From a virus, in the IMG/VR virus record IMGVR_UViG_3300028498_000027, positions 1 to 36,703 of that record: 36,703 nt of DNA; one strand, 5' to 3'. A program made the translations under genes and the position numbers. The stretch's first letter is position 1, and each line of letters opens with the position of its first letter. Below are positions 235 to 16,694 of the stretch, one piece after another. The notes below the pieces were generated by a model, which was given only the letters and a program-made list of their open reading frames with translations, searched no databases and was not told where the DNA came from.

Positions 235-657
235 TCAAGTTATATCGTAATGATTAGCAAGTAGCTGCTTGCATCGCTCACTAAAGCTCATAGTGTCAGC
301 ATCGATAGCATCAAGCAATGATTGCTCTGTTTGCTTTTCTGTATTAAAGACAACCAATTTCTTTTTAGCTTTTTGACGATAATTTGCATCATAACCGGCT
401 TGTAATGACTTGCTTTTCATAGCACTTAGCACATCACTTACGATTGCAGCATCACAACTATGCTCGTCTCTACCATCTATCAAGTTGTCAATCCAGTCCA
501 TATAAGCATCTTGGCTGTCAAATTCTAGCTGAGCATAACCACCTACTGCCTCGCCTTCGCTTTCTGCTACCAAGCATATCGAGCTGTCACTATTCTCGTA
601 CTTAGCAACTGACAGCTCACCAACCTGCATATTAAATAAATATCTTTGAAATTTCAC
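235..657 (-). CDS. Hypothetical acidic protein with a ribbon-helix-helix-like C-terminal domain (candidate DNA-binding regulator)
   Basis: 140-aa ORF with a GTG start at 657, preceded by AAGGGAGAG (5-nt spacing). The N-terminal ~95 aa are rich in Asp/Glu. The C-terminal KKLVVFNTEKQTEQSLLDAIDADTMSFSERCKQLLANHY reads as a beta-strand, helix A, and an S-x-SE-capped helix B, typical of CopG/Arc-type RHH domains. This is pattern recognition only. Confidence 0.6.
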   Translation of the reverse strand: MKFQRYLFNMQVGELSVAKYENSDSSICLVAESEGEAVGGYAQLEFDSQDAYMDWIDNLIDGRDEHSCDAAIVSDVLSAMKSKSLQAGYDANYRQKAKKKLVVFNTEKQTEQSLLDAIDADTMSFSERCKQLLANHYDIT

Positions 658-659
658 AA

Positions 660-1019
660 TTACTCTCCCTTACTTTCAATGAATGACTTAACTTGCTTTA
701 CGTAGTCACTGAGTTTCGGTAGTGACTGGTCACGCTCAGACCACCCTAGATATACACGACTACTGCTTTCTTCCATGCTCTCAGTGTCGTTGTAATCCAT
801 GTCGCAAACCAAGTCATAAAATCTAACAGAGAACTCGTTTACTGCATCTTGGTTTTCATCATTCACAGAATCAGCAAGTGCCAAGCTAATCATTTCTTCA
901 TAATCAAAATCATTGTTTTTAATAGCATCATAAGCAACTAGCGGTATTGATGCGTTTAAAAAATCATCGTTAGATTTAGCGTTGTTTGCTGCGTTTAATA
1001 ACTCGTTTAAGTTTCTCAT
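660..1019 (-). CDS. Hypothetical very acidic small protein (candidate anti-defence / DNA-mimic protein)
   Basis: 119-aa ORF with ATG at 1019 preceded by AAGGAAG. By my count it has about 25 Asp+Glu against about 10 Lys+Arg. I recognise no motif. It is the first gene after a strong promoter. Confidence 0.6.
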   Translation of the reverse strand: MRNLNELLNAANNAKSNDDFLNASIPLVAYDAIKNNDFDYEEMISLALADSVNDENQDAVNEFSVRFYDLVCDMDYNDTESMEESSSRVYLGWSERDQSLPKLSDYVKQVKSFIESKGE

Positions 1020-1064
1020 GACTGACTTCCTTTTTTAATAGTATGTTTGCTTTGTATGTTTCCT

Positions 1065-1092
1065 AGTATATACTATATTAGATAGTCGTCAA
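1065..1092 (-). promoter_or_regulatory. Sigma70-type promoter TTGACG-16 nt-TATACT (candidate late PR'-like or cassette promoter)
   Basis: On the minus strand the -35 TTGACG is at 1092..1087 and the -10 TATACT at 1070..1065, with a 16-nt spacer. The hexamers are identical to the PR candidate at 7764..7792. The -10 lies inside the perfect 12-bp palindrome TAGTATATACTA (1064..1075). Confidence 0.65.
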
Positions 1093-1107
1093 GCACTGAT
1101 TCGAAAT

Positions 1108-1143
1108 TAAATAAAAATAAAGCCCTGCTGTTACACAAGGCTT
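1108..1143 (-). terminator. Intrinsic terminator immediately after the Q gene
   Basis: The minus-strand RNA reads AAGCCUUG-(8-nt loop)-CAGGGCUU (8-bp stem) followed by UAUUUUUAUUU. It starts 5 nt after the Q stop codon. Confidence 0.7.
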
Positions 1144-1148
1144 GCAAT

Positions 1149-1556
1149 CTACGCCATTTCACACTTTAAAGCATATCTCACAAAACCCTCGGCTCGTGCC
1201 AAGTGCTGATAAACAATATGCTTACTCACTTTGCGCTTACTATCTTTGCCGTACTTGATGCGAGTGAAGTGATTGTGTGCTATGTACTCAGGCTTTTGCC
1301 CCAAATAGTAATGCAAAAACACGCTGTTATAAGCATCTACGTCATCGTCTCTTAGCTCAATCAGAACCTCGTTGACTCGCATAGCATCGTCATCATTGAG
1401 CATTGCCACACTGCGATACTGTCTAGCTGTAGTCACATCGACAATCGGCGCTTTGTGCATGATAGATTCTATGTTTGACTTGTAGCTAAGATTGTCTAAT
1501 CCGCTGCGACTCCATGCACCCCATTGCTCTAGTAGCTCTACTATATTGTCAGTCAT
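1149..1556 (-). CDS. Late-gene antitermination protein Q
   Basis: 135 aa. The N-terminal LLEQWGAWSRSG motif is characteristic of the phage antitermination Q family. It is the last gene of the early-right operon and lies directly upstream of a terminator, a promoter and the packaging genes. Confidence 0.8.
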   Translation of the reverse strand: MTDNIVELLEQWGAWSRSGLDNLSYKSNIESIMHKAPIVDVTTARQYRSVAMLNDDDAMRVNEVLIELRDDDVDAYNSVFLHYYLGQKPEYIAHNHFTRIKYGKDSKRKVSKHIVYQHLARAEGFVRYALKCEMA

Positions 1557-1837
1557 TTCTTCACCTCAATTAGTCCAGCATCAACCCAGTGTTGCAACGT
1601 CTCAAAATGCGCTCTCAAAATATCCTTATAAACCGTGTCGCTCTTTACTCGTCCATCTATTGAATCGTGACAGCTTGAACACGCAAAGCAGCTCATATAA
1701 TCGGGCGGCTTAATCCCTGTACCGCAAAACTGGTTATTTCTGATGTGAGCTAAAACCACCGTTTCAGGATTATAATTGCAGCCTGTGAGCCTCAACGTGC
1801 AATTCTGGCCTCTTGCTGATTTGCGTAGCTTACTCAT
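1553..1837 (-). CDS. DUF1364 / YbcO-like Cys-rich protein of the nin region (putative nuclease)
   Basis: 94 aa. It contains RGQNCTLRLTGCNYNPETVVLAHI and CFACSSCHD, matching the DUF1364 pattern of lambdoid nin-region proteins. It has 4-nt overlaps with both neighbours. Confidence 0.7.
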   Translation of the reverse strand: MSKLRKSARGQNCTLRLTGCNYNPETVVLAHIRNNQFCGTGIKPPDYMSCFACSSCHDSIDGRVKSDTVYKDILRAHFETLQHWVDAGLIEVKK

Positions 1838-2300
1838 GATAGATACCGTCCATTGGCTGTGTTAGGCGTAAGTTATGCTTGATAGTGAAGTGATCGTAAA
1901 TAGCTTGCAGATACTCGGCCATTTGCTCTTTATTCATTAACCTGGTCACTGGTAGATCAATCGGCCTTGTCATTAGTGCAACTTTTGTCTCATAGGGCAG
2001 CGGCTCAACATCTGCCATATAGACCGCCTCGTACTCCGCATCAGCCGCGCATAGTATTGGCACACCGAACCACAACTTACATAACGCTCTGTACTGCTCG
2101 TAGGTGTAGTCCTTTTTTTGCTGCGCTACCTCGGTGAGCCATTTGTGCTGTAGGCTGTTCTGTGGCGTGCTACGTTTCACCTTTTCGCCATCTTCTTCCG
2201 TAGCTGTGTAGGGTAATGAGCGCGTCGCTAGATAAGACATATGTTTTAACCTCTCATCGTCGTTACGCACTATTCGGCTGACCTTGGTTGATTTAGTCAT
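1830..2300 (-). CDS. NinB-like recombination protein (tentative)
   Basis: The preferred start is ATG at 2300 (AGGTGG SD, 5-nt spacing, inside an ATGACTAA overlap with the upstream stop). The track start is GTG at 2309. RSTPQNSLQHKWLTEVA and MNKEQMAEYLQAIYDHF resemble lambda NinB RSLDQNRKLWACLGDVS and MRVGEFAELLELIQAFG. Confidence 0.5.
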   Translation of the reverse strand: MTKSTKVSRIVRNDDERLKHMSYLATRSLPYTATEEDGEKVKRSTPQNSLQHKWLTEVAQQKKDYTYEQYRALCKLWFGVPILCAADAEYEAVYMADVEPLPYETKVALMTRPIDLPVTRLMNKEQMAEYLQAIYDHFTIKHNLRLTQPMDGIYHE

Positions 2301-2880
2301 CAGCACCACCTGCCAAATCTATCGAGTCAAGTCTTGCGTACAACTCAGATAACGAACCTCGGTTATCAACAAAGATGTCACCTTCATTGAAATCAAGTTG
2401 CTGCTCTGATATATGGCTACCCTCAATCCCTCCACGCCCTTCCATGTGAATTAAAAACCCATGCTTGCGTATCAATTCCGCTTCATTCTCAAAACGTACA
2501 TCAGGCACGATGACGCATTGACCTGCATTACTTCTAGCGAATACATCAATCCAAAAATTACTACCAATACCATTACGGCCCCACTCAGTGCCAAGTGTTT
2601 GCAGCATATGTCGCGTCGATACACCGTATTGATTACTAGGTAGGTCTTTTGCTTCATCGCTAGTATCAACGTCTATGGCGTTAAGCATGGCTTTCATTGG
2701 GTCTGCAAACGATGCGGTTGACCAGTTGCCGCCCAGCTTATTCAGCAAGTATTTTGCGGTTGTATCCTTACCGCTTCGAGCCTTACCTGCTATACCGATT
2801 AGTCTCATTTTTTTCATAGGTAATTCTCCGAAAGTCTGTAGCGCAATATCATCATCAAACGTGCAATCAACATTACTCAT
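2293..2880 (-). CDS. P-loop kinase, dNMP-kinase-like
   Basis: Walker A motif GIAGKARSGKDT near the N-terminus and a length typical of phage deoxynucleotide monophosphate kinases. The start is uncertain. ATG at 2880 would be translationally coupled to the upstream gene. ATG at 2817 (MKKMRLIGIAG) has a better GGAGA SD. Confidence 0.65.
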   Translation of the reverse strand: MSNVDCTFDDDIALQTFGELPMKKMRLIGIAGKARSGKDTTAKYLLNKLGGNWSTASFADPMKAMLNAIDVDTSDEAKDLPSNQYGVSTRHMLQTLGTEWGRNGIGSNFWIDVFARSNAGQCVIVPDVRFENEAELIRKHGFLIHMEGRGGIEGSHISEQQLDFNEGDIFVDNRGSLSELYARLDSIDLAGGADD

Positions 2881-3049
2881 CGCCCTTACTCCCCTTAGCT
2901 CGCTCAATCAGCTTGTTTTCTTTCTCACTAGCACTTGCATCACTTGCAACTTCAAACGGCTGTACGGCTATCTCATGACCGTTTACGACCACTCTACCCA
3001 GCACCTTGCCGTCTCGGTAACTCATCATTGTTATTTTTGGCTCAATCAT
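2873..3049 (-). CDS. Hypothetical 58-aa protein (below the ORF-track length cut-off)
   Basis: My own translation is MIEPKITMMSYRDGKVLGRVVVNGHEIAVQPFEVASDASASEKENKLIERAKGSKGDE. The ATG overlaps the RusA stop (ATGA) and the stop overlaps the next ATG (ATGAGTAA). It exactly fills an otherwise non-coding gap in a tightly packed operon. Confidence 0.5.
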   Translation of the reverse strand: MIEPKITMMSYRDGKVLGRVVVNGHEIAVQPFEVASDASASEKENKLIERAKGSKGDE

Positions 3050-3432
3050 TGGTTAATTCCTTTTTGGTTACCTTTTAGCTCGTAAAGCTCAACGTCTATT
3101 CGACCGCCTTTGATAATCTCGCCACGCTTAATGTTCAGCTCGTCAATCAGCTCGTCGTCATCAATCACTCTTGCGTGTGTCAGCGCATCCCATAGCGCCT
3201 TTTGGTAATTATCTATGTCAAACTTGCGCTTATCCCTGCCATGTATCGTTACTTGCGCTCTGATGCGTCCTGTGTGCGTCCTGATGCGTCCTAAACTTGC
3301 CACGTATGCAATGACCTCACTTCTAAACTTTCGAGCCTTAGCGGACAAATACTTGCCTTTTGGCTTTACTAGCCAATAACCGTTTACACTTGGCGGCATT
3401 GGCAGTTGAGCTTTGAAAAATGGTTCGGTCAT
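3046..3432 (-). CDS. rusA: RusA-family Holliday junction resolvase
   Basis: 128 aa. It contains LPMPPSVNGYW and FDIDNYQKALWDALTHARVIDDDELI, which match the conserved RusA motifs. Confidence 0.88.
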   Translation of the reverse strand: MTEPFFKAQLPMPPSVNGYWLVKPKGKYLSAKARKFRSEVIAYVASLGRIRTHTGRIRAQVTIHGRDKRKFDIDNYQKALWDALTHARVIDDDELIDELNIKRGEIIKGGRIDVELYELKGNQKGINQ

Positions 3433-3433
3433 G

Positions 3434-3790
3434 CTAAGCCCTCACGACTGCGTACGAGTTAATCAAATCCACTTTCAAATCTTTATCACCTGCTCTCAGC
3501 TCATCGACGAAATCATTACCAAAACCAAATATCACCTTAGACAAATCACCTTGACCGCCCTTGTCTCTAAAAACCATGCTTTGCAATCCGCGCTTGTGTC
3601 CGTCCGTGTCGAATATGTGAAGCGTGACTTGAAACTTGCGGTCTTTTTTCATGATTCGTTTGCGTCTGCTTGCTATCCATTGGCCAGTGAATTGCGCTCT
3701 ATCGGCTGCCTTTTTGTAGTCGTTATCGTGCAAGTAAATCTTGAAATAGCCGTCGAATACTGGTTTAAATGCTATTTGCTTATTCATCAC
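3434..3790 (-). CDS. Hypothetical protein
   Basis: 118-aa ORF tightly packed with its neighbours. No motif recognised. Confidence 0.6.
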   Translation of the reverse strand: MMNKQIAFKPVFDGYFKIYLHDNDYKKAADRAQFTGQWIASRRKRIMKKDRKFQVTLHIFDTDGHKRGLQSMVFRDKGGQGDLSKVIFGFGNDFVDELRAGDKDLKVDLINSYAVVRA

Positions 3791-3981
3791 GGCTCTCCAT
3801 ACTCCGCCAACTCTGCTTCCATCTGCGCCTCAATCTGCACAATGTCCAATCTATCCATCAATGCCGCTTCTTGGTCTTTGCCGTCATACTCAAAAGGCGC
3901 TATCTGCCAATACTTGCCGTCCTCTAAAATCTCGCCTGATAGCTTGCCGTCTTTGATTGTTTGCATTGTTATTTTTCTCAT
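3787..3981 (-). CDS. Hypothetical protein
   Basis: 64-aa ORF with 4-nt overlaps at both ends, consistent with translational coupling. Confidence 0.55.
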   Translation of the reverse strand: MRKITMQTIKDGKLSGEILEDGKYWQIAPFEYDGKDQEAALMDRLDIVQIEAQMEAELAEYGEP

Positions 3982-4835
3982 AAGTACGCTACCTTAGCCA
4001 CTGACTGGCGATAGCTAGCCCAGTCGCACTTGATAATAATTAAGTTTTCTTGCAGCCTATCCCACGCTCTATCGCCTAAATGAGCGACTACCTGTTCAGG
4101 CGTTAAGTTTGTGGTGATAATCGTCGGTTTCTTTTGGTAGCGTTTAGCGATTATCTGAGCAATGCGCCCTCTGTCGTTGGCCGCCATTTCTTCATTGCTT
4201 GCTGTGTCGTTATCACCTAAATCATCAATGATTAGCAGCTCAAAGTTTGCTAAATCCTCTATGAGTTGGTTTTCGTTTTTCTGATAATCACCCCATGTGG
4301 CTTTTGCTTGCTCTGTAATATCGCGTGATGTGATAAGTCTTACGCAGTGAGTGCCTGACATGGTGTAATCAACTTCGCGCTTAACGTCTTGCTGCACAGC
4401 TCTGCGGTAGATATTTTTCGCTAAGGCATTGGCTAACATCGTCTTGCCTGACCCCGTACCGCCGACTAGCATAATGTTTGGTAGCTTTGCATTGCGCCCA
4501 TCTATGCCACGTATGGCAAACTTGTCTCCTATTCCGCTAATCGTTTTAACAATCTTTTCTTGCCTATCCGCTTGTGCGTCATCAAACTGCCAGTCCTCAA
4601 ATCGCTTGCCGTCTGCATTGATACCGCAATTAGCCATAATTGATTTGTATCTAGCGTAAATCTTGTCTAGGTTTTCTTGCTTTGCTTTGACCTTGTTCTC
4701 CGCCTCGCACTGTCTGCAAAATTTTGGTGAACTACCAAAGTAGTAATGGTCTGTTAGTCCGTGTGTATTGCACTCAAACTGGATAACCTGCTTTTCAGGT
4801 ACACCGCCATTATTTAAAATATCTACATAGCTCAT
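3978..4835 (-). CDS. DnaC/IstB-like AAA+ helicase loader (functional analogue of lambda P)
   Basis: Walker A LVGGTGSGKTMLA, Walker B LLIIDDLG, and an N-terminal Cys pair-pair (CNTHG...CRQC). It lies directly downstream of, and overlaps, the O-like initiator gene. Confidence 0.85.
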   Translation of the reverse strand: MSYVDILNNGGVPEKQVIQFECNTHGLTDHYYFGSSPKFCRQCEAENKVKAKQENLDKIYARYKSIMANCGINADGKRFEDWQFDDAQADRQEKIVKTISGIGDKFAIRGIDGRNAKLPNIMLVGGTGSGKTMLANALAKNIYRRAVQQDVKREVDYTMSGTHCVRLITSRDITEQAKATWGDYQKNENQLIEDLANFELLIIDDLGDNDTASNEEMAANDRGRIAQIIAKRYQKKPTIITTNLTPEQVVAHLGDRAWDRLQENLIIIKCDWASYRQSVAKVAYL

Positions 4836-5755
4836 GCGTTATCTCCTAGCATATCTTCGATGGTTGAGTTGGCTGCTACGATGTTCGATTTGTTAGCGCC
4901 TCCCCAGTTGTTGTTTACTGCTAATTTATCCGTACTGCGATCAATGACCTTTGGCGCTGCTGACTGGTTAAACTTACTGACTGCCTCACCGCATCTTTTG
5001 TTGCTGTCGATTGCGTTTTTAATCAGCACTTGGTTTTTCTGTTGATGCCAGTTGCTATTGATGACTGATTGCATTGCCGTACGTATTTCATCTTCGGTAA
5101 ATGTCTTTAACCGTGTTTTAACCGTATCTATCCAAACTGCGTGTTTTACATTTGCGTTTACTCCCTTGCCGTGGTTTTCATTCCAGTAATCAATTAAGCT
5201 ATTTGCCGTCTTAGTTGATGAATCATCTTTTTTAGGTTTATCACTCTCTGTTTCTTTATTACTTTCTTTAATGTTTCTTTCTTTCTTTATAAGTGTGCCC
5301 TTTTTAGTACCTACTCCAGTGTCCTTTTTAGGCACTACCCTAGTGTCCTTTTTAGGTACTAGGTAGGTACTATTATCGGTACTACCTGAAATGGTACTAG
5401 GCTCTATTTCCGTACCTGCTTCGTACTCGATAGCCCATAGTGGACAAGCCTTGTTGATTGAATAAACATTAACCATTCCGCGTTGCTTTCTTACTGTTAT
5501 CAATCCTGAATCCACAGCTTCTTGAACAAACTTATAAGCAGTAGCTTTCTTTTTAATATCTAGTAAGCTCATAAAACGTTCAGTCGGTATCAATGCCTCT
5601 TTGCGACCATTCATACCCTCTGTTAATCGCCATACGTTCAGGATTATCCAACCTGCGTTTGGGCTTACCACTTGACCTACCAATCTATCCGTAAGTATGT
5701 TTGGACATTTATGCCAGTTACCCATTAGCGCACCTTGATTATCAAACCCAGTCAT
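4832..5755 (-). CDS. Replication initiator, lambda O-like
   Basis: The N-terminal NWHKCPNILTDRL...GWIILNVWRLTEGMNGRKEALIP...ATAYKFVQEAVDSGLI resembles the phage replication protein O winged-helix domain. The central linker is encoded by iterated DNA (VPKKDT repeats), as for lambda ori within O. Confidence 0.8.
   Translation of the reverse strand: MTGFDNQGALMGNWHKCPNILTDRLVGQVVSPNAGWIILNVWRLTEGMNGRKEALIPTERFMSLLDIKKKATAYKFVQEAVDSGLITVRKQRGMVNVYSINKACPLWAIEYEAGTEIEPSTISGSTDNSTYLVPKKDTRVVPKKDTGVGTKKGTLIKKERNIKESNKETESDKPKKDDSSTKTANSLIDYWNENHGKGVNANVKHAVWIDTVKTRLKTFTEDEIRTAMQSVINSNWHQQKNQVLIKNAIDSNKRCGEAVSKFNQSAAPKVIDRSTDKLAVNNNWGGANKSNIVAANSTIEDMLGDNA
5292..5400. repeat. Iteron array, putative origin of replication inside the O-like gene
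   Basis: There are three ~19-bp iterons at 5292, 5318 and 5342 (AGTGTGCCCTTTTTAGTAC / AGTGTCCTTTTTAGGCAC / AGTGTCCTTTTTAGGTAC), each with inverted half-sites around T5. The GGTAC half-site then recurs at 5356, 5366, 5379 and 5393. The flank at 5225-5291 is AT- and pyrimidine-rich. Confidence 0.7.
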
Positions 5756-5762
5756 GTATAAT
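5735..5762 (+). promoter_or_regulatory. Antisense promoter TTGATT-16 nt-TATAAT (Po-like)
   Basis: On the plus strand the -35 TTGATT is at 5735..5740 and the consensus -10 TATAAT at 5757..5762. It overlaps the start codon of the minus-strand O-like gene and fires towards a plus-strand terminator about 40 nt away. Confidence 0.55.
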
Positions 5763-5768
5763 TTCCTT

Positions 5769-5831
5769 GTAAGCTCCTAGCTTGCTTTAGTTGTGGAACG
5801 CCTTTCAGTTTGCCCTGATAAGGCGTTTTTT
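5769..5831 (+). ncRNA. Putative ~60-nt antisense RNA (lambda OOP-like), including its intrinsic terminator at 5797..5831
   Basis: The predicted start is about 7 nt after the -10. The terminator has an 8-bp stem AACGCCTT/AAGGCGTT extended by TCAG/CTGA and is followed by T6 on the plus strand only. The RNA would be complementary to the O-gene leader and to the stop-codon region of the upstream gene. Confidence 0.5.
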
Positions 5832-6273
5832 ATTGCTCGCTGATTAAGCGAAATGACTCGATTCTTCTACTGCCTTTAAATCTGTTTATTTCCATCTGAT
5901 AACCTTCTTTTCTAATTCTGTGCATCAAGGTGATAGCTGGCTTACGGTCTAAACTTAAACTGTCAATGCGTAAAAGCTCGTTGTTTAAAAACCTGCGCTT
6001 TATCTCGCCTGATTTTGATTTTGGGTTCGTGGCTGATACACGGTAGTCTTTAGGTTTTGAATCAATGACCAACTCGTCTTGCATATCTCTAACAGTCGGT
6101 ATCGACCAGACTAGCGGTCTTGCTGTGCAGTTTGGCTTGTAGCCCATGTCAGCTAAAATCGCTCGTACTGACGCTTGATTTCTAATGTGAGAAAATTCGC
6201 TATGGTCAATCTTGCCGTCTGCTATCTTTGCAGCAACTATCTTTTGAACCTTGTTGTAAAGTGGGTGTTTCAT
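5830..6273 (-). CDS. Hypothetical protein
   Basis: 147-aa ORF in the early-right operon, at the position of lambda cII. No motif recognised. Confidence 0.6.
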   Translation of the reverse strand: MKHPLYNKVQKIVAAKIADGKIDHSEFSHIRNQASVRAILADMGYKPNCTARPLVWSIPTVRDMQDELVIDSKPKDYRVSATNPKSKSGEIKRRFLNNELLRIDSLSLDRKPAITLMHRIRKEGYQMEINRFKGSRRIESFRLISEQ

Positions 6274-6275
6274 TA

Positions 6276-6503
6276 CTAAAGAACCTCGTTTGCTAAAATC
6301 CAGCCAATTAAAGACCGTCTGCGATATAGAGTTATCAGGTCTAGCTCATAATTTTCTTTTAATTCGATAAGTGCGTTTTTGGTCGTCTTATCGTTGAACC
6401 CTGCTGCTTTGAAGTCGTCCCTGCTTAGCACATAACCTTTTTTAAACTTATCGGCTATTGCGTCTATACGCTTACGCTTTCCTGTGTTCCTTTTATCAAT
6501 CAC
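6276..6503 (-). CDS. Hypothetical protein
   Basis: 75-aa basic ORF tightly packed with its neighbours. Confidence 0.55.
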   Translation of the reverse strand: MIDKRNTGKRKRIDAIADKFKKGYVLSRDDFKAAGFNDKTTKNALIELKENYELDLITLYRRRSLIGWILANEVL

Positions 6504-6685
6504 GATGCTCTCCTTGCTTTGCCATGTCCTACACTCCTTTTGTTGCGATTGTTGAAACTAAACACCTTGCCTGTATTGACCGCTTGCCTTGCACCGTGTT
6601 GTTTGTAAAACTCATCAATAGCGGCTTGGTCTGGACTTACCTTTGGGTATGTCGAACGCTTGTGTGCATTTCTCTCTTTTTTCAT
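6500..6685 (-). CDS. Hypothetical basic protein
   Basis: 61-aa ORF rich in Lys/Arg, with 4-nt overlaps at both ends. Confidence 0.5.
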   Translation of the reverse strand: MKKERNAHKRSTYPKVSPDQAAIDEFYKQHGARQAVNTGKVFSFNNRNKRSVGHGKARRAS

Positions 6686-6897
6686 ACCTGCCCCGCAAAA
6701 TGAATTAATGTGTAGATGGCCAGTGCTGCACAGGTGATTACAAAGACGACTGATTTAATGCTGTGCCAAAATTGAGCGTTGATGTCGCGTTTGCGCTGTC
6801 GTGCTGCTTCGTTGGCTTGCTTGACTTGATGCTGTGGTAGATGGTTTTTATCTGCATCTACGACTAGCTCCAAGTGTGTTGCGTGGTCACTTTTCAT
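6682..6897 (-). CDS. Hypothetical C-terminally anchored membrane protein
   Basis: The preferred start is ATG at 6897 (AAGGA SD), giving MKSDHATH... The track start is 6942. One C-terminal hydrophobic helix (VVFVITCAALAIYTLIHFA). Confidence 0.5.
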   Translation of the reverse strand: MKSDHATHLELVVDADKNHLPQHQVKQANEAARQRKRDINAQFWHSIKSVVFVITCAALAIYTLIHFAGQV

Positions 6898-7024
6898 TGC
6901 TGTCGTCCTTAATTGGTAATTCGTAAGTCTTGCCACCTGCAAACGTTATTGTTTCGCGCTGTGCTTGCATCATCTGAAAGTGTTGAATCTCACGCTCCCA
7001 GTCTGCTATTTCTTGCTCAGTCAT
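6887..7024 (-). CDS. Hypothetical 45-aa protein (below the ORF-track cut-off)
   Basis: My own translation is MTEQEIADWEREIQHFQMMQAQRETITFAGGKTYELPIKDDSNEK. The ATG lies within TATGACTGA, overlapping the Rha stop, and the 3' end overlaps the next ATG by 11 nt. It fills the 6898-7016 gap. Confidence 0.45.
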   Translation of the reverse strand: MTEQEIADWEREIQHFQMMQAQRETITFAGGKTYELPIKDDSNEK

Positions 7025-7505
7025 ATTTAAGCCCCAGTGTTAGTTGCATCTGATTCTTTATCTTCTGAATCATGCTGTTGTTTACCTTTTTATTCTTTTT
7101 GCGCTCAACCAAGCCTTTGCCGTGAAATGAACCCACAGAAAAGTCGTCGTTATCTTTTGTCTGCCAGTATTCAAGCTGCTTGGTTAATGACTTGTTTTGC
7201 TTTTCTAGGTAGATCCAGCGGTCTACAATGTCGGCTGTAAATTCAGGTGATAGCTGAGCAACGACAATCAAACTATCTCGCTTGGCTTTATCGCCACTGA
7301 ATACATAAATTTCGGTTTTGTAGGTTCTATTGTTTGCCTCTTTTAGCACGTTGCCCATTGGGGGTAATGCTATTAAGCCTCTAGCAGCAAGCCTTTCAAT
7401 ACTTTGTTTAACTTTGCTGTGATGACTGCCAGTGACAACTTCGATATCAAGACTCGTCATAGTTGCTGTATTGCTGCTAAATAAATCACTAAGTATTAAT
7501 TCCAT
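7017..7505 (-). CDS. Rha-family phage regulatory protein
   Basis: MTSLDIEVVTGSHHSKVKQSIERL matches the Rha N-terminal pattern (TSLEIAE.TGK.H..VLRDI). It is the second gene of the PR operon. Confidence 0.7.
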   Translation of the reverse strand: MELILSDLFSSNTATMTSLDIEVVTGSHHSKVKQSIERLAARGLIALPPMGNVLKEANNRTYKTEIYVFSGDKAKRDSLIVVAQLSPEFTADIVDRWIYLEKQNKSLTKQLEYWQTKDNDDFSVGSFHGKGLVERKKNKKVNNSMIQKIKNQMQLTLGLKYD

Positions 7506-7738
7506 TAGTACGCCTCCAGTTCTAACAATTCAGGGCATAAATCAGACGCTTTAATCTCGCCTCCAGTTAGCCTCTCCGCCTTCTGAGCATTTAAGCTACT
7601 CATGCCATGCTTTCCATTTACCCAGCCGTTAACAGTGCCCTGCTTTACATTTAGAGCCTCGGCTGTCTTATCTTGTGTTCCAAAGTACCTGACCAAACGG
7701 TATGCCGGTTCAAATACCTGATTTTCTATATTTTGCAT
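7505..7738 (-). CDS. cro: Cro/YdaS-like HTH repressor, first gene of the early-right operon
   Basis: The preferred start is ATG at 7738 (AGGAG SD, 5-nt spacing). The track start is GTG at 7744. HTH segment KTAEALNVKQGTVNGWVNG. It is divergent from the CI gene across a 124-bp operator region. Confidence 0.8.
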   Translation of the reverse strand: MQNIENQVFEPAYRLVRYFGTQDKTAEALNVKQGTVNGWVNGKHGMSSLNAQKAERLTGGEIKASDLCPELLELEAY

Positions 7739-7763
7739 AGTCACTCCTGTTTATCATTCGCTT

Positions 7764-7792
7764 AGTATATAGGTATACCTTTATTACGTCAA
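7764..7792 (-). promoter_or_regulatory. PR-like early-right promoter TTGACG-17 nt-TATACT
   Basis: On the minus strand the -35 is at 7792..7787 and the -10 at 7769..7764. The spacer contains the palindromic operator core AGGTATACCT. It lies about 20 nt upstream of the cro start. Confidence 0.7.
7767..7784. promoter_or_regulatory. Operator OR-a (ATATAGGTATACCTTTAT)
   Basis: Near-perfect 18-bp palindrome with the 10-bp perfect core AGGTATACCT. Related copies are at 7823, 8642 and 8667. Confidence 0.65.
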
Positions 7793-7814
7793 CTAGCAAA
7801 GTTAATTAAATACA

Positions 7815-7841
7815 TTGCATTAATATAGGTCTGCCTATAAT
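7815..7841 (+). promoter_or_regulatory. PRM-like promoter for the repressor gene, overlapping operator OR-b (7823..7840, ATATAGGTCTGCCTATAA)
   Basis: Consensus -10 TATAAT at 7836..7841, 27 nt upstream of the CI ATG. The only -35-like hexamer (TTGCAT, 7815..7820) has a short 15-nt spacer, so the promoter may be weak or depend on an activator. Confidence 0.45.
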
Positions 7842-7868
7842 ATAAAGTTATAACCGATGGAGGCGACA

Positions 7869-8558
7869 ATGGAACTTAAAGACAGATTGAAGCGCGCTAG
7901 AAAAAACGCTGGATTAACTCAAAAAGATATTGAGAAGAATATCCCTAATATGAAACAGTCTACTTATAGTGAGCTAGAGAGAGGCTTGAGCAAAAGCACT
8001 TCGCGTATTGTTGACTTGGCTAGTTTGTTTAAAGTCAACCCTGAATGGCTTGCTACTGGCGAAGGAGAGATGGCTGCCAGTAACAAGCTGAGCGATTATG
8101 TTGTTGTTGGCAACGAGAATCAAAAAGCAAGTAATGATGACTATGTGATGATTGACCAGTACGACGTGGCAGGTAGCTGCGGCAGTGGTGCATTAATAGG
8201 TGATGTAACAGTAAAGGGCGGCTTAGCTTTTAAGCGCGACTGGATTAATGCGATGAATGTTGATAGCAAAAACCTAGCGACTATCTATGCTCAAGGCGAC
8301 TCTATGTCACCAACTATTGAAGATGGTCAGGTGCTGTTGGTCGATAAGTCAGCCATACAACCACAATCAACCAAGATTTATATCATCTGCATTGATGGCC
8401 AGCTATACATTAAGCGCCTTGTTAATCTATATGATAAATGGGTTATGCGCTCAGATAATGCCGACAAATCAAGTTATCCGGATATTGAGATTAGTGCTGA
8501 TACAATGAGCGAAGTAGATGTGCAAGGTCGCATTGTTTGGCAAGCTGGCATACTCTAA
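7869..8558 (+). CDS. cI: CI-like prophage repressor (HTH_XRE plus S24 LexA-type self-cleaving peptidase)
   Basis: The preferred start is ATG at 7869 (GGAGG SD, 5-nt spacing). HTH LTQKDIEKNIPNMKQSTYSELERG, candidate Ala-Gly cleavage site in YDVAGSCG, catalytic Ser in GDSMSPT and Lys in YIKRL. Confidence 0.92.
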   Translation: MELKDRLKRARKNAGLTQKDIEKNIPNMKQSTYSELERGLSKSTSRIVDLASLFKVNPEWLATGEGEMAASNKLSDYVVVGNENQKASNDDYVMIDQYDVAGSCGSGALIGDVTVKGGLAFKRDWINAMNVDSKNLATIYAQGDSMSPTIEDGQVLLVDKSAIQPQSTKIYIICIDGQLYIKRLVNLYDKWVMRSDNADKSSYPDIEISADTMSEVDVQGRIVWQAGIL

Positions 8559-8574
8559 ACCCTTATAGAAAAAG

Positions 8575-8601
8575 AAACCCACCATTTGAGTGGGTTTTTT
8601 T
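8575..8601 (+). terminator. Intrinsic terminator after the repressor gene
   Basis: 8-bp stem AAACCCAC-CATTTGA-GTGGGTTT followed by a T run through 8601. Confidence 0.85.
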
Positions 8602-8641
8602 ACGTCTGCTGATAATGGTAAGTTGATATTATTTTAAATAA

Positions 8642-8659
8642 ATATCGGTATGCCTGTTG
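8642..8659. promoter_or_regulatory. Operator OL-b (ATATCGGTATGCCTGTTG), overlapping the PL -35
   Basis: It shares the GGTATGCCT core with the other three operator copies. Confidence 0.55.
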
Positions 8660-8685
8660 ACTTATAATAAAGGTATGCCTATAAT
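8657..8685 (+). promoter_or_regulatory. PL-like early-left promoter TTGACT-17 nt-TATAAT, with operator OL-a (8667..8684, ATAAAGGTATGCCTATAA) in the spacer
   Basis: Near-consensus hexamers at 8657..8662 and 8680..8685. The sequence GTTGAC.TA.TAAAGGTAT.CCTAT is shared, in inverted orientation, with the PR candidate. Confidence 0.75.
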
Positions 8686-8799
8686 ACACACATCGCAAGG
8701 CAAAACGCAGACGATGCAGCGATACCAAATTCAAGACAGCAAAAAGCCCTGCAATCCGACCAAAGACATACAGGGCTATTCACTTACTAAGGAATGATT

Positions 8800-9819
8800 A
8801 TGACAGAAAAAGCACTAAGTATCATTATTCAGCGTGAAGATTTACCGCAACTGTTTGGCAAGCGCGTAGAGAGCCAAGCAGCAATTGAAGAAGTTATCAG
8901 CAAGATTGAAACCGAATCGCGCTCAATCACTTTTGATATTAACACCAAAGACGGTCAAGCAACTTGCCGCTCATTGGCTGCCAAGATTGCTAGTGCCAAG
9001 TCTACGCTAGACAAGGCAGGCAAAGCCAAAAAGGACGAATACACCGTCACTACCAAGTTAATTGATGCTGACCGCAATCTTGCTAAGAGCCGATTGCAGG
9101 CGCTACAAGATGAAATCAGACAGCCACTGACTGAGCTTGAGCAACGAGAAGCACAGCGCAAGGCACGGCATGAAGCAAACCTAGCTGCATTAATTGATTT
9201 TACCGACCTTGTAGGCGCTCATAGCTCAGCTATTAGCGAGCGCATCAATACCCTGCAAGACAAAGTTATCGGTGACGACTGGGAAGAATATAAAGCTGAG
9301 GCGCTAGAAGCCAAAGACTGCACACTCAAAGCCTTACGCACTGAGTTTGAAATGGTTAAGCAGCGCGAAGATGAACAGGCAGAGCTTGCAAGATTAAGAG
9401 CTGAACAAGCCCAACGTGAGCAGCAAGAGCGTGAAGAACGTATTGCTCAAGAGGCAACCGCTAAAGCCAAGGCTGACGCAGAACGACAGGCGCAGCAAGT
9501 AGCACAAGAGGCAGAACGTAAAGAGCGTGAACAGCAAGAACGTGAAGCAAGATTGATTGCTGAGAAAGAAGCGGCTGAGCTAAGAGCTAAGCAACAAGTT
9601 ATTGATGCTGCCAAGCGCGAACGTGAAGCTATCGAAGCAGAACGATTAGAGGCTGAGCGACTAGAGGCTAAGCGCCAAGCCGACAAAAAACATCGTGAGG
9701 CTGTTTTCTTTAAAGCAAAAGATGACTTGGTGGCAGGTGGAATTGATGAGGAAACCGCCAAAGCGGTCATCAAGCTAATTCATGCAAACAAAGTTAGCAA
9801 CGTGACTATCAAATTCTAG
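8800..9819 (+). CDS. Hypothetical coiled-coil protein (possibly DUF1351-like)
   Basis: The preferred start is ATG at 8800 (AAGGA SD, 6-nt spacing). The central part is a long E/R/A/Q heptad-like region (EQAQREQQEREERIAQEATAKAKADAERQ...). It is the first gene of the PL operon. Confidence 0.6.
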   Translation: MTEKALSIIIQREDLPQLFGKRVESQAAIEEVISKIETESRSITFDINTKDGQATCRSLAAKIASAKSTLDKAGKAKKDEYTVTTKLIDADRNLAKSRLQALQDEIRQPLTELEQREAQRKARHEANLAALIDFTDLVGAHSSAISERINTLQDKVIGDDWEEYKAEALEAKDCTLKALRTEFEMVKQREDEQAELARLRAEQAQREQQEREERIAQEATAKAKADAERQAQQVAQEAERKEREQQEREARLIAEKEAAELRAKQQVIDAAKREREAIEAERLEAERLEAKRQADKKHREAVFFKAKDDLVAGGIDEETAKAVIKLIHANKVSNVTIKF

Positions 9820-15266: not shown

Positions 15267-16550
15267 GTGGCTAACAACAAATTAAAAGAGCTTGGCATCA
15301 AGACCGACTCACAAATCAAACAAGCTATCAAAGACCATGGCAGCGGTGATGAAGTTTATGCCATTCAGGGTTATAAAGGATTGAACCTTTACATTCGTGA
15401 TAATAAGACTACTACATTTAGGCATCGTTTTACTAGCCCTGATAATGGCAAACGTCGTAACTTCACTTTGGGTGCTTATCCAGTGTTCACACTTGAGCAA
15501 GCGCGTGATATGTACCGTGACAACCTATCAATGTTAAGCAGAGGCGTCGATCCAGTCACCTACTACGAGCAATTAGCAAACAAAGCCGCTGCCATGCCTA
15601 CATTCTCTCAGATGGCCAGTGAATGGTTACAAGGTCAGATAGCATCAGGTCAATTTGAGAAACGCACTATCGAGCAAAAGCGCAAGCATATTGACTATGC
15701 GTGTGAGCACATCGGGCGCATGAGCCTGGACAAGATAGGAACGCCTGACGTATTAAAGGCCATTAAGCATATCGAGCGTGAGACGATACCAACAGCTAAA
15801 CGTGTGCGCGGTGTCTGTCAAAAGATATTCGCCCTTGCTATTGGTCAAGGTTATATAGCAAGCAATCCGGCTATAGCTGTCGCTGACTTAATGCTGCCAA
15901 AGCCAAAAACCAAACATCATAGCGCGATTATTGAGCCAGTGGCTTTTGGTCAACTGCTACGTGATATTGATAATGTGACGGACTTTTACGGCCATGCTCA
16001 AAACATACTAAAACTGCAGTCGATGCTATTTCAGCGTAACGGTGATATGTGCTCGATGCGTTGGGATTGTATCGACTTTAACGATGCTACGTGGTCGTTT
16101 AATCCGCTCAAAACAGGCAATAGAACCGACATGGTGAGCAGTTTGATAGTGCCATTGCCAAGACAGGCTATCGAGCTGCTACGAGCCGTACAAGAGCAAA
16201 CAGGCGATACTGACTATGTGTTCTATAACTCACGACGCAAAGATAAATTTGAGCATCAGCAACAGCTTAACAAGTTTTTGAACCGCATTGGCTATGAGGG
16301 TATTCATATGCCGCATGGTTTTCGTGCGTCTGCTCGAACCATGCTTGTTGAACAGTTGGGAATATCCGAACAGTTGATAGAATTGCAATTAGGCCATAAC
16401 GTGCGTGATGCTAACGGTCGTGCTTATAATCGTGTGCAGCTTATTTCTGAGCGCAGGGACATGATGCAAAAATGGGCTGACTATTTAGACCAACTGTCCG
16501 GTATTCCCGAACAGTTCGTTTGTCTCTCAAAAATACATGATATTGAATAA
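15267..16550 (+). CDS. int: Tyrosine integrase, P4-type (DUF4102 arm-binding N-terminus)
   Basis: 427 aa. The N-terminal KGLNLYIRDNKTTTFRHRF...RRNFTLGAYPVFTLEQARD matches the P4-integrase N-domain pattern. Catalytic-region motifs HGFRASARTML and LGHNVRDANGRAYNR are present. It has a GTG start with no obvious SD. Confidence 0.92.
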   Translation: MANNKLKELGIKTDSQIKQAIKDHGSGDEVYAIQGYKGLNLYIRDNKTTTFRHRFTSPDNGKRRNFTLGAYPVFTLEQARDMYRDNLSMLSRGVDPVTYYEQLANKAAAMPTFSQMASEWLQGQIASGQFEKRTIEQKRKHIDYACEHIGRMSLDKIGTPDVLKAIKHIERETIPTAKRVRGVCQKIFALAIGQGYIASNPAIAVADLMLPKPKTKHHSAIIEPVAFGQLLRDIDNVTDFYGHAQNILKLQSMLFQRNGDMCSMRWDCIDFNDATWSFNPLKTGNRTDMVSSLIVPLPRQAIELLRAVQEQTGDTDYVFYNSRRKDKFEHQQQLNKFLNRIGYEGIHMPHGFRASARTMLVEQLGISEQLIELQLGHNVRDANGRAYNRVQLISERRDMMQKWADYLDQLSGIPEQFVCLSKIHDIE

Positions 16551-16581
16551 CAAAGCGCTTAGCTTCTCAAAACCTAGACAC

Positions 16582-16620
16582 AAAAAAAGCCCCGCCAAAT
16601 TAATGACGGGGCTTATTGTT
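16582..16620. terminator. Bidirectional intrinsic terminator between int and the tRNA-like element
   Basis: 7-bp stem AGCCCCG-(12-nt loop)-CGGGGCT, flanked by A7 upstream and TTATTGTTT downstream. On the minus strand it is followed by U7. Confidence 0.8.
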
Positions 16621-16694
16621 TGGACGGGCGGTAGGAATTGAACCTACATTAGGCTGGTGTTCCTCCAGCTGTTCTACCAATGAACCACAACCCG
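16621..16694 (-). tRNA. Degenerate tRNA-like element, probable attP core derived from a host tRNA gene; not a canonical tRNA
   Basis: The minus strand reads CGGGTTG TG GTTC ATTGGTA GAAC A GCTGG AGGAACA CCAGC CTAAT GTAGG TTCAATT CCTAC CGCCCG T CCA. The D arm, anticodon stem, variable loop and T arm are canonical. The anticodon loop has G33 and C37 (positions 34-36 read GAA). The 3' acceptor strand is 1 nt short, and only 4 of 7 acceptor pairs form. Confidence 0.4.

Follow-up and report, generated by a model that had tools for sequence, protein, structure and literature searches.

An antisense unit lying opposite the leader of an O-like replication initiator gene is the subject of this analysis of IMG/VR virus record IMGVR_UViG_3300028498_000027, a stretch of 36,703 nt from a temperate Psychrobacter (Moraxellaceae) phage. 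This whole stretch is referred to below as the window, all positions are those of the window unless another record is named, and its + strand is the one opposite to all genes neighbouring the unit. In the reading that we favour, to which we assign a probability of about 0.6, a promoter placed over the O start would give rise to a ~65-nt RNA with two hairpins, which would end at the stop codon of the upstream gene and limit both O synthesis and transcription directed towards the origin.

The mechanism that we propose runs as follows. A sigma-70-type promoter across the O start codon would fire rightwards (+), opposing a pR-type early transcript, and its product would open with a 5' hairpin, carry a short linker and close with an intrinsic terminator, at which transcription would stop on reaching the stop codon of the upstream gene. 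This RNA would match the O leader with perfect complementarity, beginning at the upstream edge of the Shine-Dalgarno and running on through the rest of the intergenic region. Pairing with the leader of the polycistronic early mRNA would then lower O synthesis, via blocked ribosome access or duplex cleavage, and the convergent promoter, in the manner of lambda pO, would also dampen early transcription that enters O and the origin. The level and timing of replication initiation would thereby be set. The overlap of the predicted RNA with the upstream gene, which varies and is not cII, would extend no further than the stop codon, and the RNA would therefore most likely act on the O leader, on the rightward transcript or on the two together.

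Architecture of the unit

The unit (Table 1) is anchored by a strong hairpin with an 8-bp stem extended by TCAG/CTGA and followed by T6 on the + strand only, which a first-pass annotation of this DNA had reported and which is in the sequence as it was described. Read on the - strand, the hairpin leads into CCACAAC and there is no U-tract, which bears out the antisense polarity that had been claimed for the terminator. A stem-loop with an immediate U-tract, the hallmark of intrinsic termination, is therefore found on the + strand only. In our own scan this was the sole + strand hairpin-plus-T-run across the whole - strand early operon (235-7744), and a standard terminator scan had overlooked it owing to a bulge beyond the 4-bp inner stem. 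The terminator hairpin by itself folds with -14.0 kcal/mol, and the + strand RNA 5765-5835, which also includes a 5' hairpin that was absent from the first-pass annotation, with -23.6 kcal/mol (z = -4.55), as against -19.1 kcal/mol (z = -3.5) for the - strand of the region.

The RNA is predicted to start at G5769 +/- 2, ~7 nt past the -10, and to have its 3' end in the U-tract. It would thereby be complementary to the O leader from -14 to ~-78, in an intergenic region of 74 nt. That it would reach the stop codon of the upstream 147-aa gene, as had been suggested, agrees with the complement of the TAA stop (5830-5832) sitting inside the T-run.

Conservation and strand-specific selection

A search of metagenomes with the O protein returned 48 relatives, and none were found in the genome-contig and viral-contig collections that were searched. 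With blastn of the region against GenBank phages there was nothing meaningful, that is, no phage sharing its DNA, and the only GenBank relative of this O protein belongs to Shewanella phage Y11, in which O overlaps an HNH gene. In the closest relatives (L001-L007), the O proteins are 79-88% identical and the DNA from the first O codons to the T-run is 91-96% identical, with similarity collapsing directly past the T-run (the upstream protein of L001 is 36% identical to the 147-aa protein of the window). Further away, in L015/L016, L017 and L142, the intergenic unit is still 82-87% identical, with O only 41-46% identical and unrelated upstream genes. The O of L014 (38% identical, upstream gene again unrelated) is preceded by a 71-nt intergenic region in which the hairpin differs (CCCAG...CTGGG + T5) and has the same orientation. 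On these alignments the putative unit travels with the O gene.

A different association is seen in L225 (IMGVR_UViG_2920962495_000002), a related prophage contig in which the same terminator cassette (4651-4745, -; loop TTTGCC, linker TTAGTTTTGTTGAA) stands before a Rha/antirepressor-like gene and not before O. There, a promoter-like hexamer pair lies over the start of the Rha-like gene, and this pair is shifted by 3-4 nt relative to the ATG while the spacing of the promoter is normal. L225 and L142 were recovered by blastn of the unit from among 240 chance loci returned by the 14-mer pattern TCAGTTTGCCCTGA, which is too unspecific in large collections. A 22-base pattern gave five matches only in IMG/VR and the JGI metagenomes, all in the same phage context, and the hairpin is therefore not a dispersed repeat.

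A covariance model was built from nine variants and then used to realign them (it matches 5765-5835 (+) with 90.8 bits); an alignment fitted to the structure makes the counts that follow lean towards that structure, and the substitutions can be read directly in the sequences. In the realigned variants, 94.3% of cells are standard pairs and eight of the 18 pairs show changes on both sides, values that none of 500 shuffles reached, and pairing falls to 16-52% when the partners are slid. Compensatory changes affect six of the 11 pairs of the terminator stem. The 5' hairpin (helix 1) is 100% paired, even in L015, which alters three of its positions and keeps pairing via C-G or U·G.

The direction in which the structure is read emerges from single stem changes, which result in G·U on the + strand and would leave A·C mismatched in the sense mRNA (L001, L005, L007 and L015 contain examples, and L142 a tandem pair). 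Across the minimum-energy folds of all variants, G·U accounts for 36 of 212 pairs in the antisense orientation vs three of 171 in the sense orientation, and the antisense fold is the more stable in nine of ten variants, by 4-13 kcal/mol in five. Lambda OOP, an RNA of proven existence, has the same bias (six G·U vs one, and -28.5 vs -18.5 kcal/mol, antisense vs sense). Strand-specific G·U together with an invariant U-tract shows that an RNA hairpin and terminator in the + strand direction have been selected for. Taken with conservation and covariation, it points to a putative RNA made from that strand, and the G·U asymmetry and U-tract could serve as a simple strand-specific signature for locating such units.

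The antisense promoter

The near-consensus promoter TTGATT-16-TATAAT that had been noticed on the + strand, overlapping the O start, is indeed present where it had been placed, and we consider that a genuine antisense promoter is probable. It scores 10/12 and is the third best of 13 sites in a promoter scan of 6 kb. The total of promoter-like sites in these 6 kb is no higher than in shuffles, and hexamers alone are therefore weak evidence. An antisense score of at least 10 occurs at two of the 53 gene starts of the window, and in a fixed 4-nt register the background probability is 0.0006 for a score of at least 10, 0.0065 for at least 9 and 0.044 for at least 8.

Every lineage carrying the unit has a promoter-like hexamer pair upstream of its hairpins in the same register. 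Apart from the window type, these are TTGATT-17-AATAAT with TG in front in L005 and L007 (9/12), TTGCCT-17-AATAAT in L015 (9/12), TTGTTT-17-AATAAT in L017 (8/12), TTGCCT-17-TTTAAT in L142 (9/12), TTGTAA-17-TTAAAT over the start codon in L014 (8/12) and TTGCAT-17-TATACT in L225 (8/12), to be compared with TTGAGT-17-CATAAT for lambda pO (9/12). The TTG is constant at 18 nt from the complement of the start codon in the window type, L015, L017, L142 and L014. Three further points favour a real promoter: (i) L225 and L014 represent independent cases at the sequence level, (ii) the first 64 nt of O form an island of nucleotide conservation comparable to the iteron region (with which another island, +385 to +464, coincides) and (iii) the first ten codons of O seem dispensable, since P0006 starts at ~residue 10.

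A cI/Cro operator within the promoter was considered and rejected, since repeats of the TATAGG...CCTATA type, as found in the immunity region, are absent near 5735-5770.

Weighing the explanations

Several points weigh against a promoter-driven regulatory RNA. The -10 falls within the A+T-rich spacer between Shine-Dalgarno and ATG, and the TTG of the -35 complements a CAA (Gln) codon that is conserved in the O protein family, so the promoter signal could in part arise as a by-product. A score of just 8/12 is reached by several variants, and the second position of the -10 is not an A in L142 (TTTAAT) and L014 (TTAAAT). With a predicted start immediately beyond the Shine-Dalgarno, the RNA would not be assured of masking it directly. 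Furthermore, L142, L225 and L260-262 were retrieved through the hairpin sequence, which biases the apparent conservation of the loop. Finally, the unit is absent in L008-L013, L018, L019 and Shewanella phage Y11, in which O overlaps the upstream gene, and replication modules of this kind can therefore do without it.

It could be, although we regard this as unlikely, that the unit is an insulating terminator only, which blocks stray + strand transcription from the A+T-rich O/origin region from reaching the early and immunity genes, the promoter match being a by-product and no regulatory RNA being made. The evidence for the terminator is much stronger than that for the promoter, antisense scores of at least 9 turn up at nine of the 53 gene starts when a 67-nt span is scanned, a second antisense terminator exists in the leader of the + strand operon, and the cassette also precedes a gene other than O in L225. 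Against this, 235-5735 contains no + strand genes or strong promoters that would feed such a terminator, and conservation and covariation extend to the 5' hairpin and the linker, for which a bare terminator would have no need. Moreover, the promoter-like site stays in register with the hairpin in each lineage, even in L225, where the site is shifted relative to the start codon, and the geometry is that of lambda pO, which is experimentally proven.

The same leader could instead work in the early mRNA, as a sense-strand element for 5'-UTR (untranslated region) processing or stability, for nut/boxA-like antitermination (a hairpin and then GCGTTCAACAAC) or as a translational operator of O. The whole 74-nt leader is better conserved than the flanking coding sequence and the complementary hairpins do fold on the - strand too, as seen above, and the linker bears what we take to be a loose resemblance to rrn boxA. 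This is nevertheless improbable, because the stem changes that give G·U in antisense give A·C in sense, because the sense fold drops to -9 to -17 kcal/mol in five variants and because the invariant T-run has a role on the + strand only, leaving the sense direction with a hairpin that has no U-tract; the nut/boxA-like version was rejected on the G·U asymmetry. Least credible to us is a DNA-level element with incidental RNA-like features, either a recombination junction ('linker') between modules or a single-stranded DNA hairpin for replication priming. That homology breaks exactly at the T-run (and in L015, L017 and L142 also at the start codon), that L225 has this cassette in front of another gene, that G·T pairs are tolerated in DNA hairpins as well and that the lambda annotation has an 'ice' replication signal near oop would all suit it, but a pure junction predicts neither compensatory stem changes nor an invariant U-tract nor a promoter fixed in register, and the hairpin lies ~430 bp from the iterons.

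Genomic setting

The phage shares 83% DNA identity with phage pOW20-A across the recombination and integrase genes. Its early layout comprises a divergent Cro-like gene next to an S24/HTH (helix-turn-helix) repressor, an Ant-like gene and small open reading frames (ORFs), and then the 147-aa gene, the 307-aa gene and a gene for a DnaC/IstB-like loader. The name 'O gene', which the first-pass annotation had used for the 307-aa gene, is justified by a match of its product to PHROG 18020 'replication initiation O-like' (E = 1.2e-8), by PF04492 carried by distant relatives and by three internal iterons, with the DnaC-like loader downstream. An A+T-rich stretch (5226-5290) adjoins the iterons, which lie ~370 bp from the antisense promoter, and the iteron region is the probable replication origin of the phage. 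The 147-aa protein has no match in Pfam or PHROG, Phage_CII included, and the idea that its gene is a cII analogue was rejected, as family searches give it no support.

Table 1. Positions of the antisense unit and of the genes and repeats around it in the window
Feature	Position	Strand	Remark
-35 hexamer TTGATT	5735-5740	+	Reverse complement of O codons 6-7 (AAT CAA)
CAT, complement of the O start codon	5753-5755	+	Within the promoter spacer
-10 hexamer TATAAT	5757-5762	+	16-nt spacer; falls between O Shine-Dalgarno and ATG
TTCCTT, complement of the O Shine-Dalgarno AAGGAA (5768-5763, -)	5763-5768	+	Directly 3' of the -10
Predicted antisense RNA, ~62-66 nt	5769-5833	+	Placed from promoter/terminator geometry
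5' hairpin GTAAGCT-CCT-AGCTTGC	5769-5785	+	7 bp including one U·G
Single-stranded linker TTTAGTTGTGG, 11 nt	5786-5796	+	Conserved in alignments
Terminator stem-loop	5797-5827	+	12-bp stem, one bulged T, invariant loop TTTGCC
Stem-loop, 5' arm and loop	5797-5804 (AACGCCTT), 5805-5808 (TCAG), 5809-5814 (loop TTTGCC)	+	
Stem-loop, 3' arm	5815-5818 (CTGA), 5819 (bulged T), 5820-5827 (AAGGCGTT)	+	
U-tract T6, then ATT	5826-5831 (T6), 5826-5834 (T6ATT)	+	Kept in all variants
O-like replication initiator, 307 aa	4832-5755	-	Leader is the predicted target of the RNA
Three iterons GTGYCCTTTTTAG, 24-nt period	5295-5355		Inside the O gene; encode a repeated VPKKDT peptide
147-aa upstream gene	5830-6273	-	Only the stop codon is overlapped by the predicted RNA
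Cro-like gene, divergent	7505-7744	-	
S24/HTH repressor	7857-8558	+	

TTGACG-17-TATACT (7792-7764) ranks first among the early promoters on the - strand of the immunity region, and the gap between repressor and cro (7745-7856) contains operator-like inverted repeats of the TATAGG...CCTATA type. Past the repressor gene (8569-8685) there is a two-way terminator (8569-8597) and then TTGACT-17-TATAAT (8657-8685), which at 11/12 is the region's best promoter match; with this promoter after the repressor, the repressor and the 'left' operon share direction. In the stretch matching the integrase and recombination genes of pOW20-A, a 427-aa ORF (15267-16550, +) has 3' of it a strong hairpin (16582-16616) and then a tRNA gene (16624-16694, -), and 15267-16694 is a likely attachment-site region.

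Similar units elsewhere and what they may mean

Eight further O-type modules from GenBank, with lambda as a ninth, were surveyed with the same scripts, a small sample without matched controls. Lambda has an antisense terminator and a promoter over the start codon (known and annotated), and P22 has such a unit at the c1/orf48 boundary, annotated in the record. Unannotated units were found in Mannheimia phage 1152AP2 (L267 442-531; TTGCCA-17-TATCAT), in Pseudomonas phage Ab31 (L269 644-720; TTGTCA-17-CATCAT) and in E. coli phage PHB10 (L271 626-726), the latter two being wholly in the O leader like that of the window. Phage mEp043 has an antisense terminator at the end of cII, with weak promoter candidates (8/12), and the same scan gave no such unit in Burkholderia KL4, Yersinia 06.16-1 and IdasGreatGrand. 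This suggests that such units recur in O-type modules well beyond enterobacterial lambdoids, sometimes in a leader-only form.

The design is also seen away from O. In the window itself, a second unit of the same design (8741-8825, -) faces the first gene of the + operon (8794-9819), antisense to its start and leader, with an extended -10 (TGTCATAAT, 8805-8797) over codons 2-3, a weak -35 (ATGATA, 8825-8820) and a strong hairpin (8778-8746) followed by T5 (-22.8 kcal/mol, z = -4.6). It is mirrored in L225 (1936-2026, +), where TTGATT-17-CATAAT overlaps the start of the first gene of the left operon (1665-1961, -) and is followed by a hairpin (CCCCGATCAG...CTGATTGGGG) and T6.

It is tempting, although we hold it as a doubtful proposition, to see the pO/oop unit as an ancient and integral part of O-type modules in Gammaproteobacteria (the groups concerned being Escherichia, Salmonella, Mannheimia, Pseudomonas and Psychrobacter), its ancestral job being to control O expression as well as transcription into the origin, with action on cII as a later add-on and reuse of the design in the same phages. 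If so, the action of lambda OOP on cII would have been enabled by a shortened intergenic region, and the 8741-8825 unit and the left-operon unit of L225 (which is separate from the cassette before its Rha-like gene) would be repeat uses.

More modestly, the putative unit plausibly carries the known pO/oop device over into a new group of hosts. To a specialist it would come as no great surprise, yet it would extend the pO/oop design to Moraxellaceae phages, set control of the leader and of replication apart from control of cII, and give the temperate phages of Psychrobacter and other Moraxellaceae, which have hardly been studied, a regulatory RNA. A conserved unit that has the same layout and is unable to touch cII would favour the initiator and early transcription as what promoter and RNA chiefly adjust, and the window would offer a clean test system for this, as its -10 lies in a non-coding spacer and can be mutated without altering O.

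Comparison with known systems

Few regulatory RNAs have been known for longer than OOP, and whether it serves control of cII or of replication has been a matter of debate. In lambda, leftward transcription from pO yields oop, which terminates at the tO hairpin and overlaps 52 bases of cII, and a LexA site is found in the pO-oop region (PMC5869508). The proposed lowering of cII by OOP proceeds through RNase III-dependent and -independent cleavage of the cII mRNA:OOP hybrid (PMC5869508). The activity of pO also reduces pR-driven transcription, and loss of pO impairs lambda replication (PMC3985674). OOP is 77 nt long (PMC5869508, PMC3985674, PMC12197685), and a review lists it for lambda and the Stx phages only (PMC12197685). 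We place its start at 38675, because of the wording '94 nucleotides rightward ... through base 38769', with which the printed '38685' is inconsistent (PMC5869508). In lambda, the complement of the O start codon forms part of the -10 (CATAAT), and the start at 38675 adjoins the O Shine-Dalgarno (AGGAG).

Of the match to lambda OOP proposed in the first-pass annotation, position, polarity and architecture stand, and the cII-type 3' overlap, which in the window amounts to a stop codon, does not. Each is a short RNA gene (a putative one in the window) that borders an O-type initiator on its upstream side and lies opposite a pR-type early operon, with a promoter (in silico for the window) overlapping the start and first codons of O, a start point beside the O Shine-Dalgarno (predicted at ~5769, next to 5763-5768, in the window), two stem-loops of which the second is an intrinsic (Rho-independent) terminator, iterons inside O at a similar distance from pO (~360 bp in lambda, ~370 bp in the window) and G·U biased to the antisense strand. 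They also have motifs in common, namely GAACGC at the stem base, a TTGCC loop core, GGCGTTTTTTATTG (a 14-nt identity) and a TTGTT..GAACGC linker, the lambda linker TTTGTTCAGAACGC being similar to that of the window. Whereas OOP has a 52-nt overlap with cII and targets its mRNA via RNase III, the window RNA would correspond to a 74-nt intergenic leader plus a stop codon, its upstream gene is neither cII-like nor conserved, its 5' hairpin is much shorter and its host is Psychrobacter. Without a cII-type overlap, the window RNA could not act on a cII-type gene as OOP does, and since this overlap is a defining feature of OOP, we do not class the unit as a member of the OOP family.

Common descent of the window unit and lambda oop is possible on sequence grounds. 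When the Psychrobacter-type model was run on the whole lambda genome, its best match was oop (38596-38655, -) with 17.8 bits (E = 0.038), and another site reached 17.0 bits. Rfam gave no match to the window unit at gathering or permissive thresholds, which is uninformative as lambda oop is likewise undetected: release 15 has no match on oop itself (lambda 38596-38700; L263/L264), so OOP-type RNAs can be neither found nor excluded with Rfam.

The sar RNA of P22 (68/69 nt) is antisense to the ant leader (PMC12197685). It is comparable in size to the predicted window RNA and likewise antisense to the leader of an early regulatory gene, and the cassette before the Rha/antirepressor-like gene in L225 is arranged like sar; in the window, unlike in P22, the gene downstream in the sense direction is a replication initiator and not an antirepressor.

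A further parallel lies outside phages, in the CopA/CopT system of plasmid R1 as it is generally known. Like CopA, the window RNA would be a small, structured, cis-antisense RNA, predicted to be complementary to the leader of an initiator mRNA just 5' of the ribosome-binding site, with its own promoter in or beside the rep gene and its own terminator, and its 6-nt terminator loop, UUUGCC, opens with a YUNR-type sequence. Unlike the plasmid system, the unit belongs to a phage early operon, there is no evident leader peptide and the loop of the first hairpin has just 3 nt. Judged by these comparisons, the unit would behave like pO/oop towards O and the early transcript, and like plasmid countertranscripts acting on the leader of a rep mRNA.

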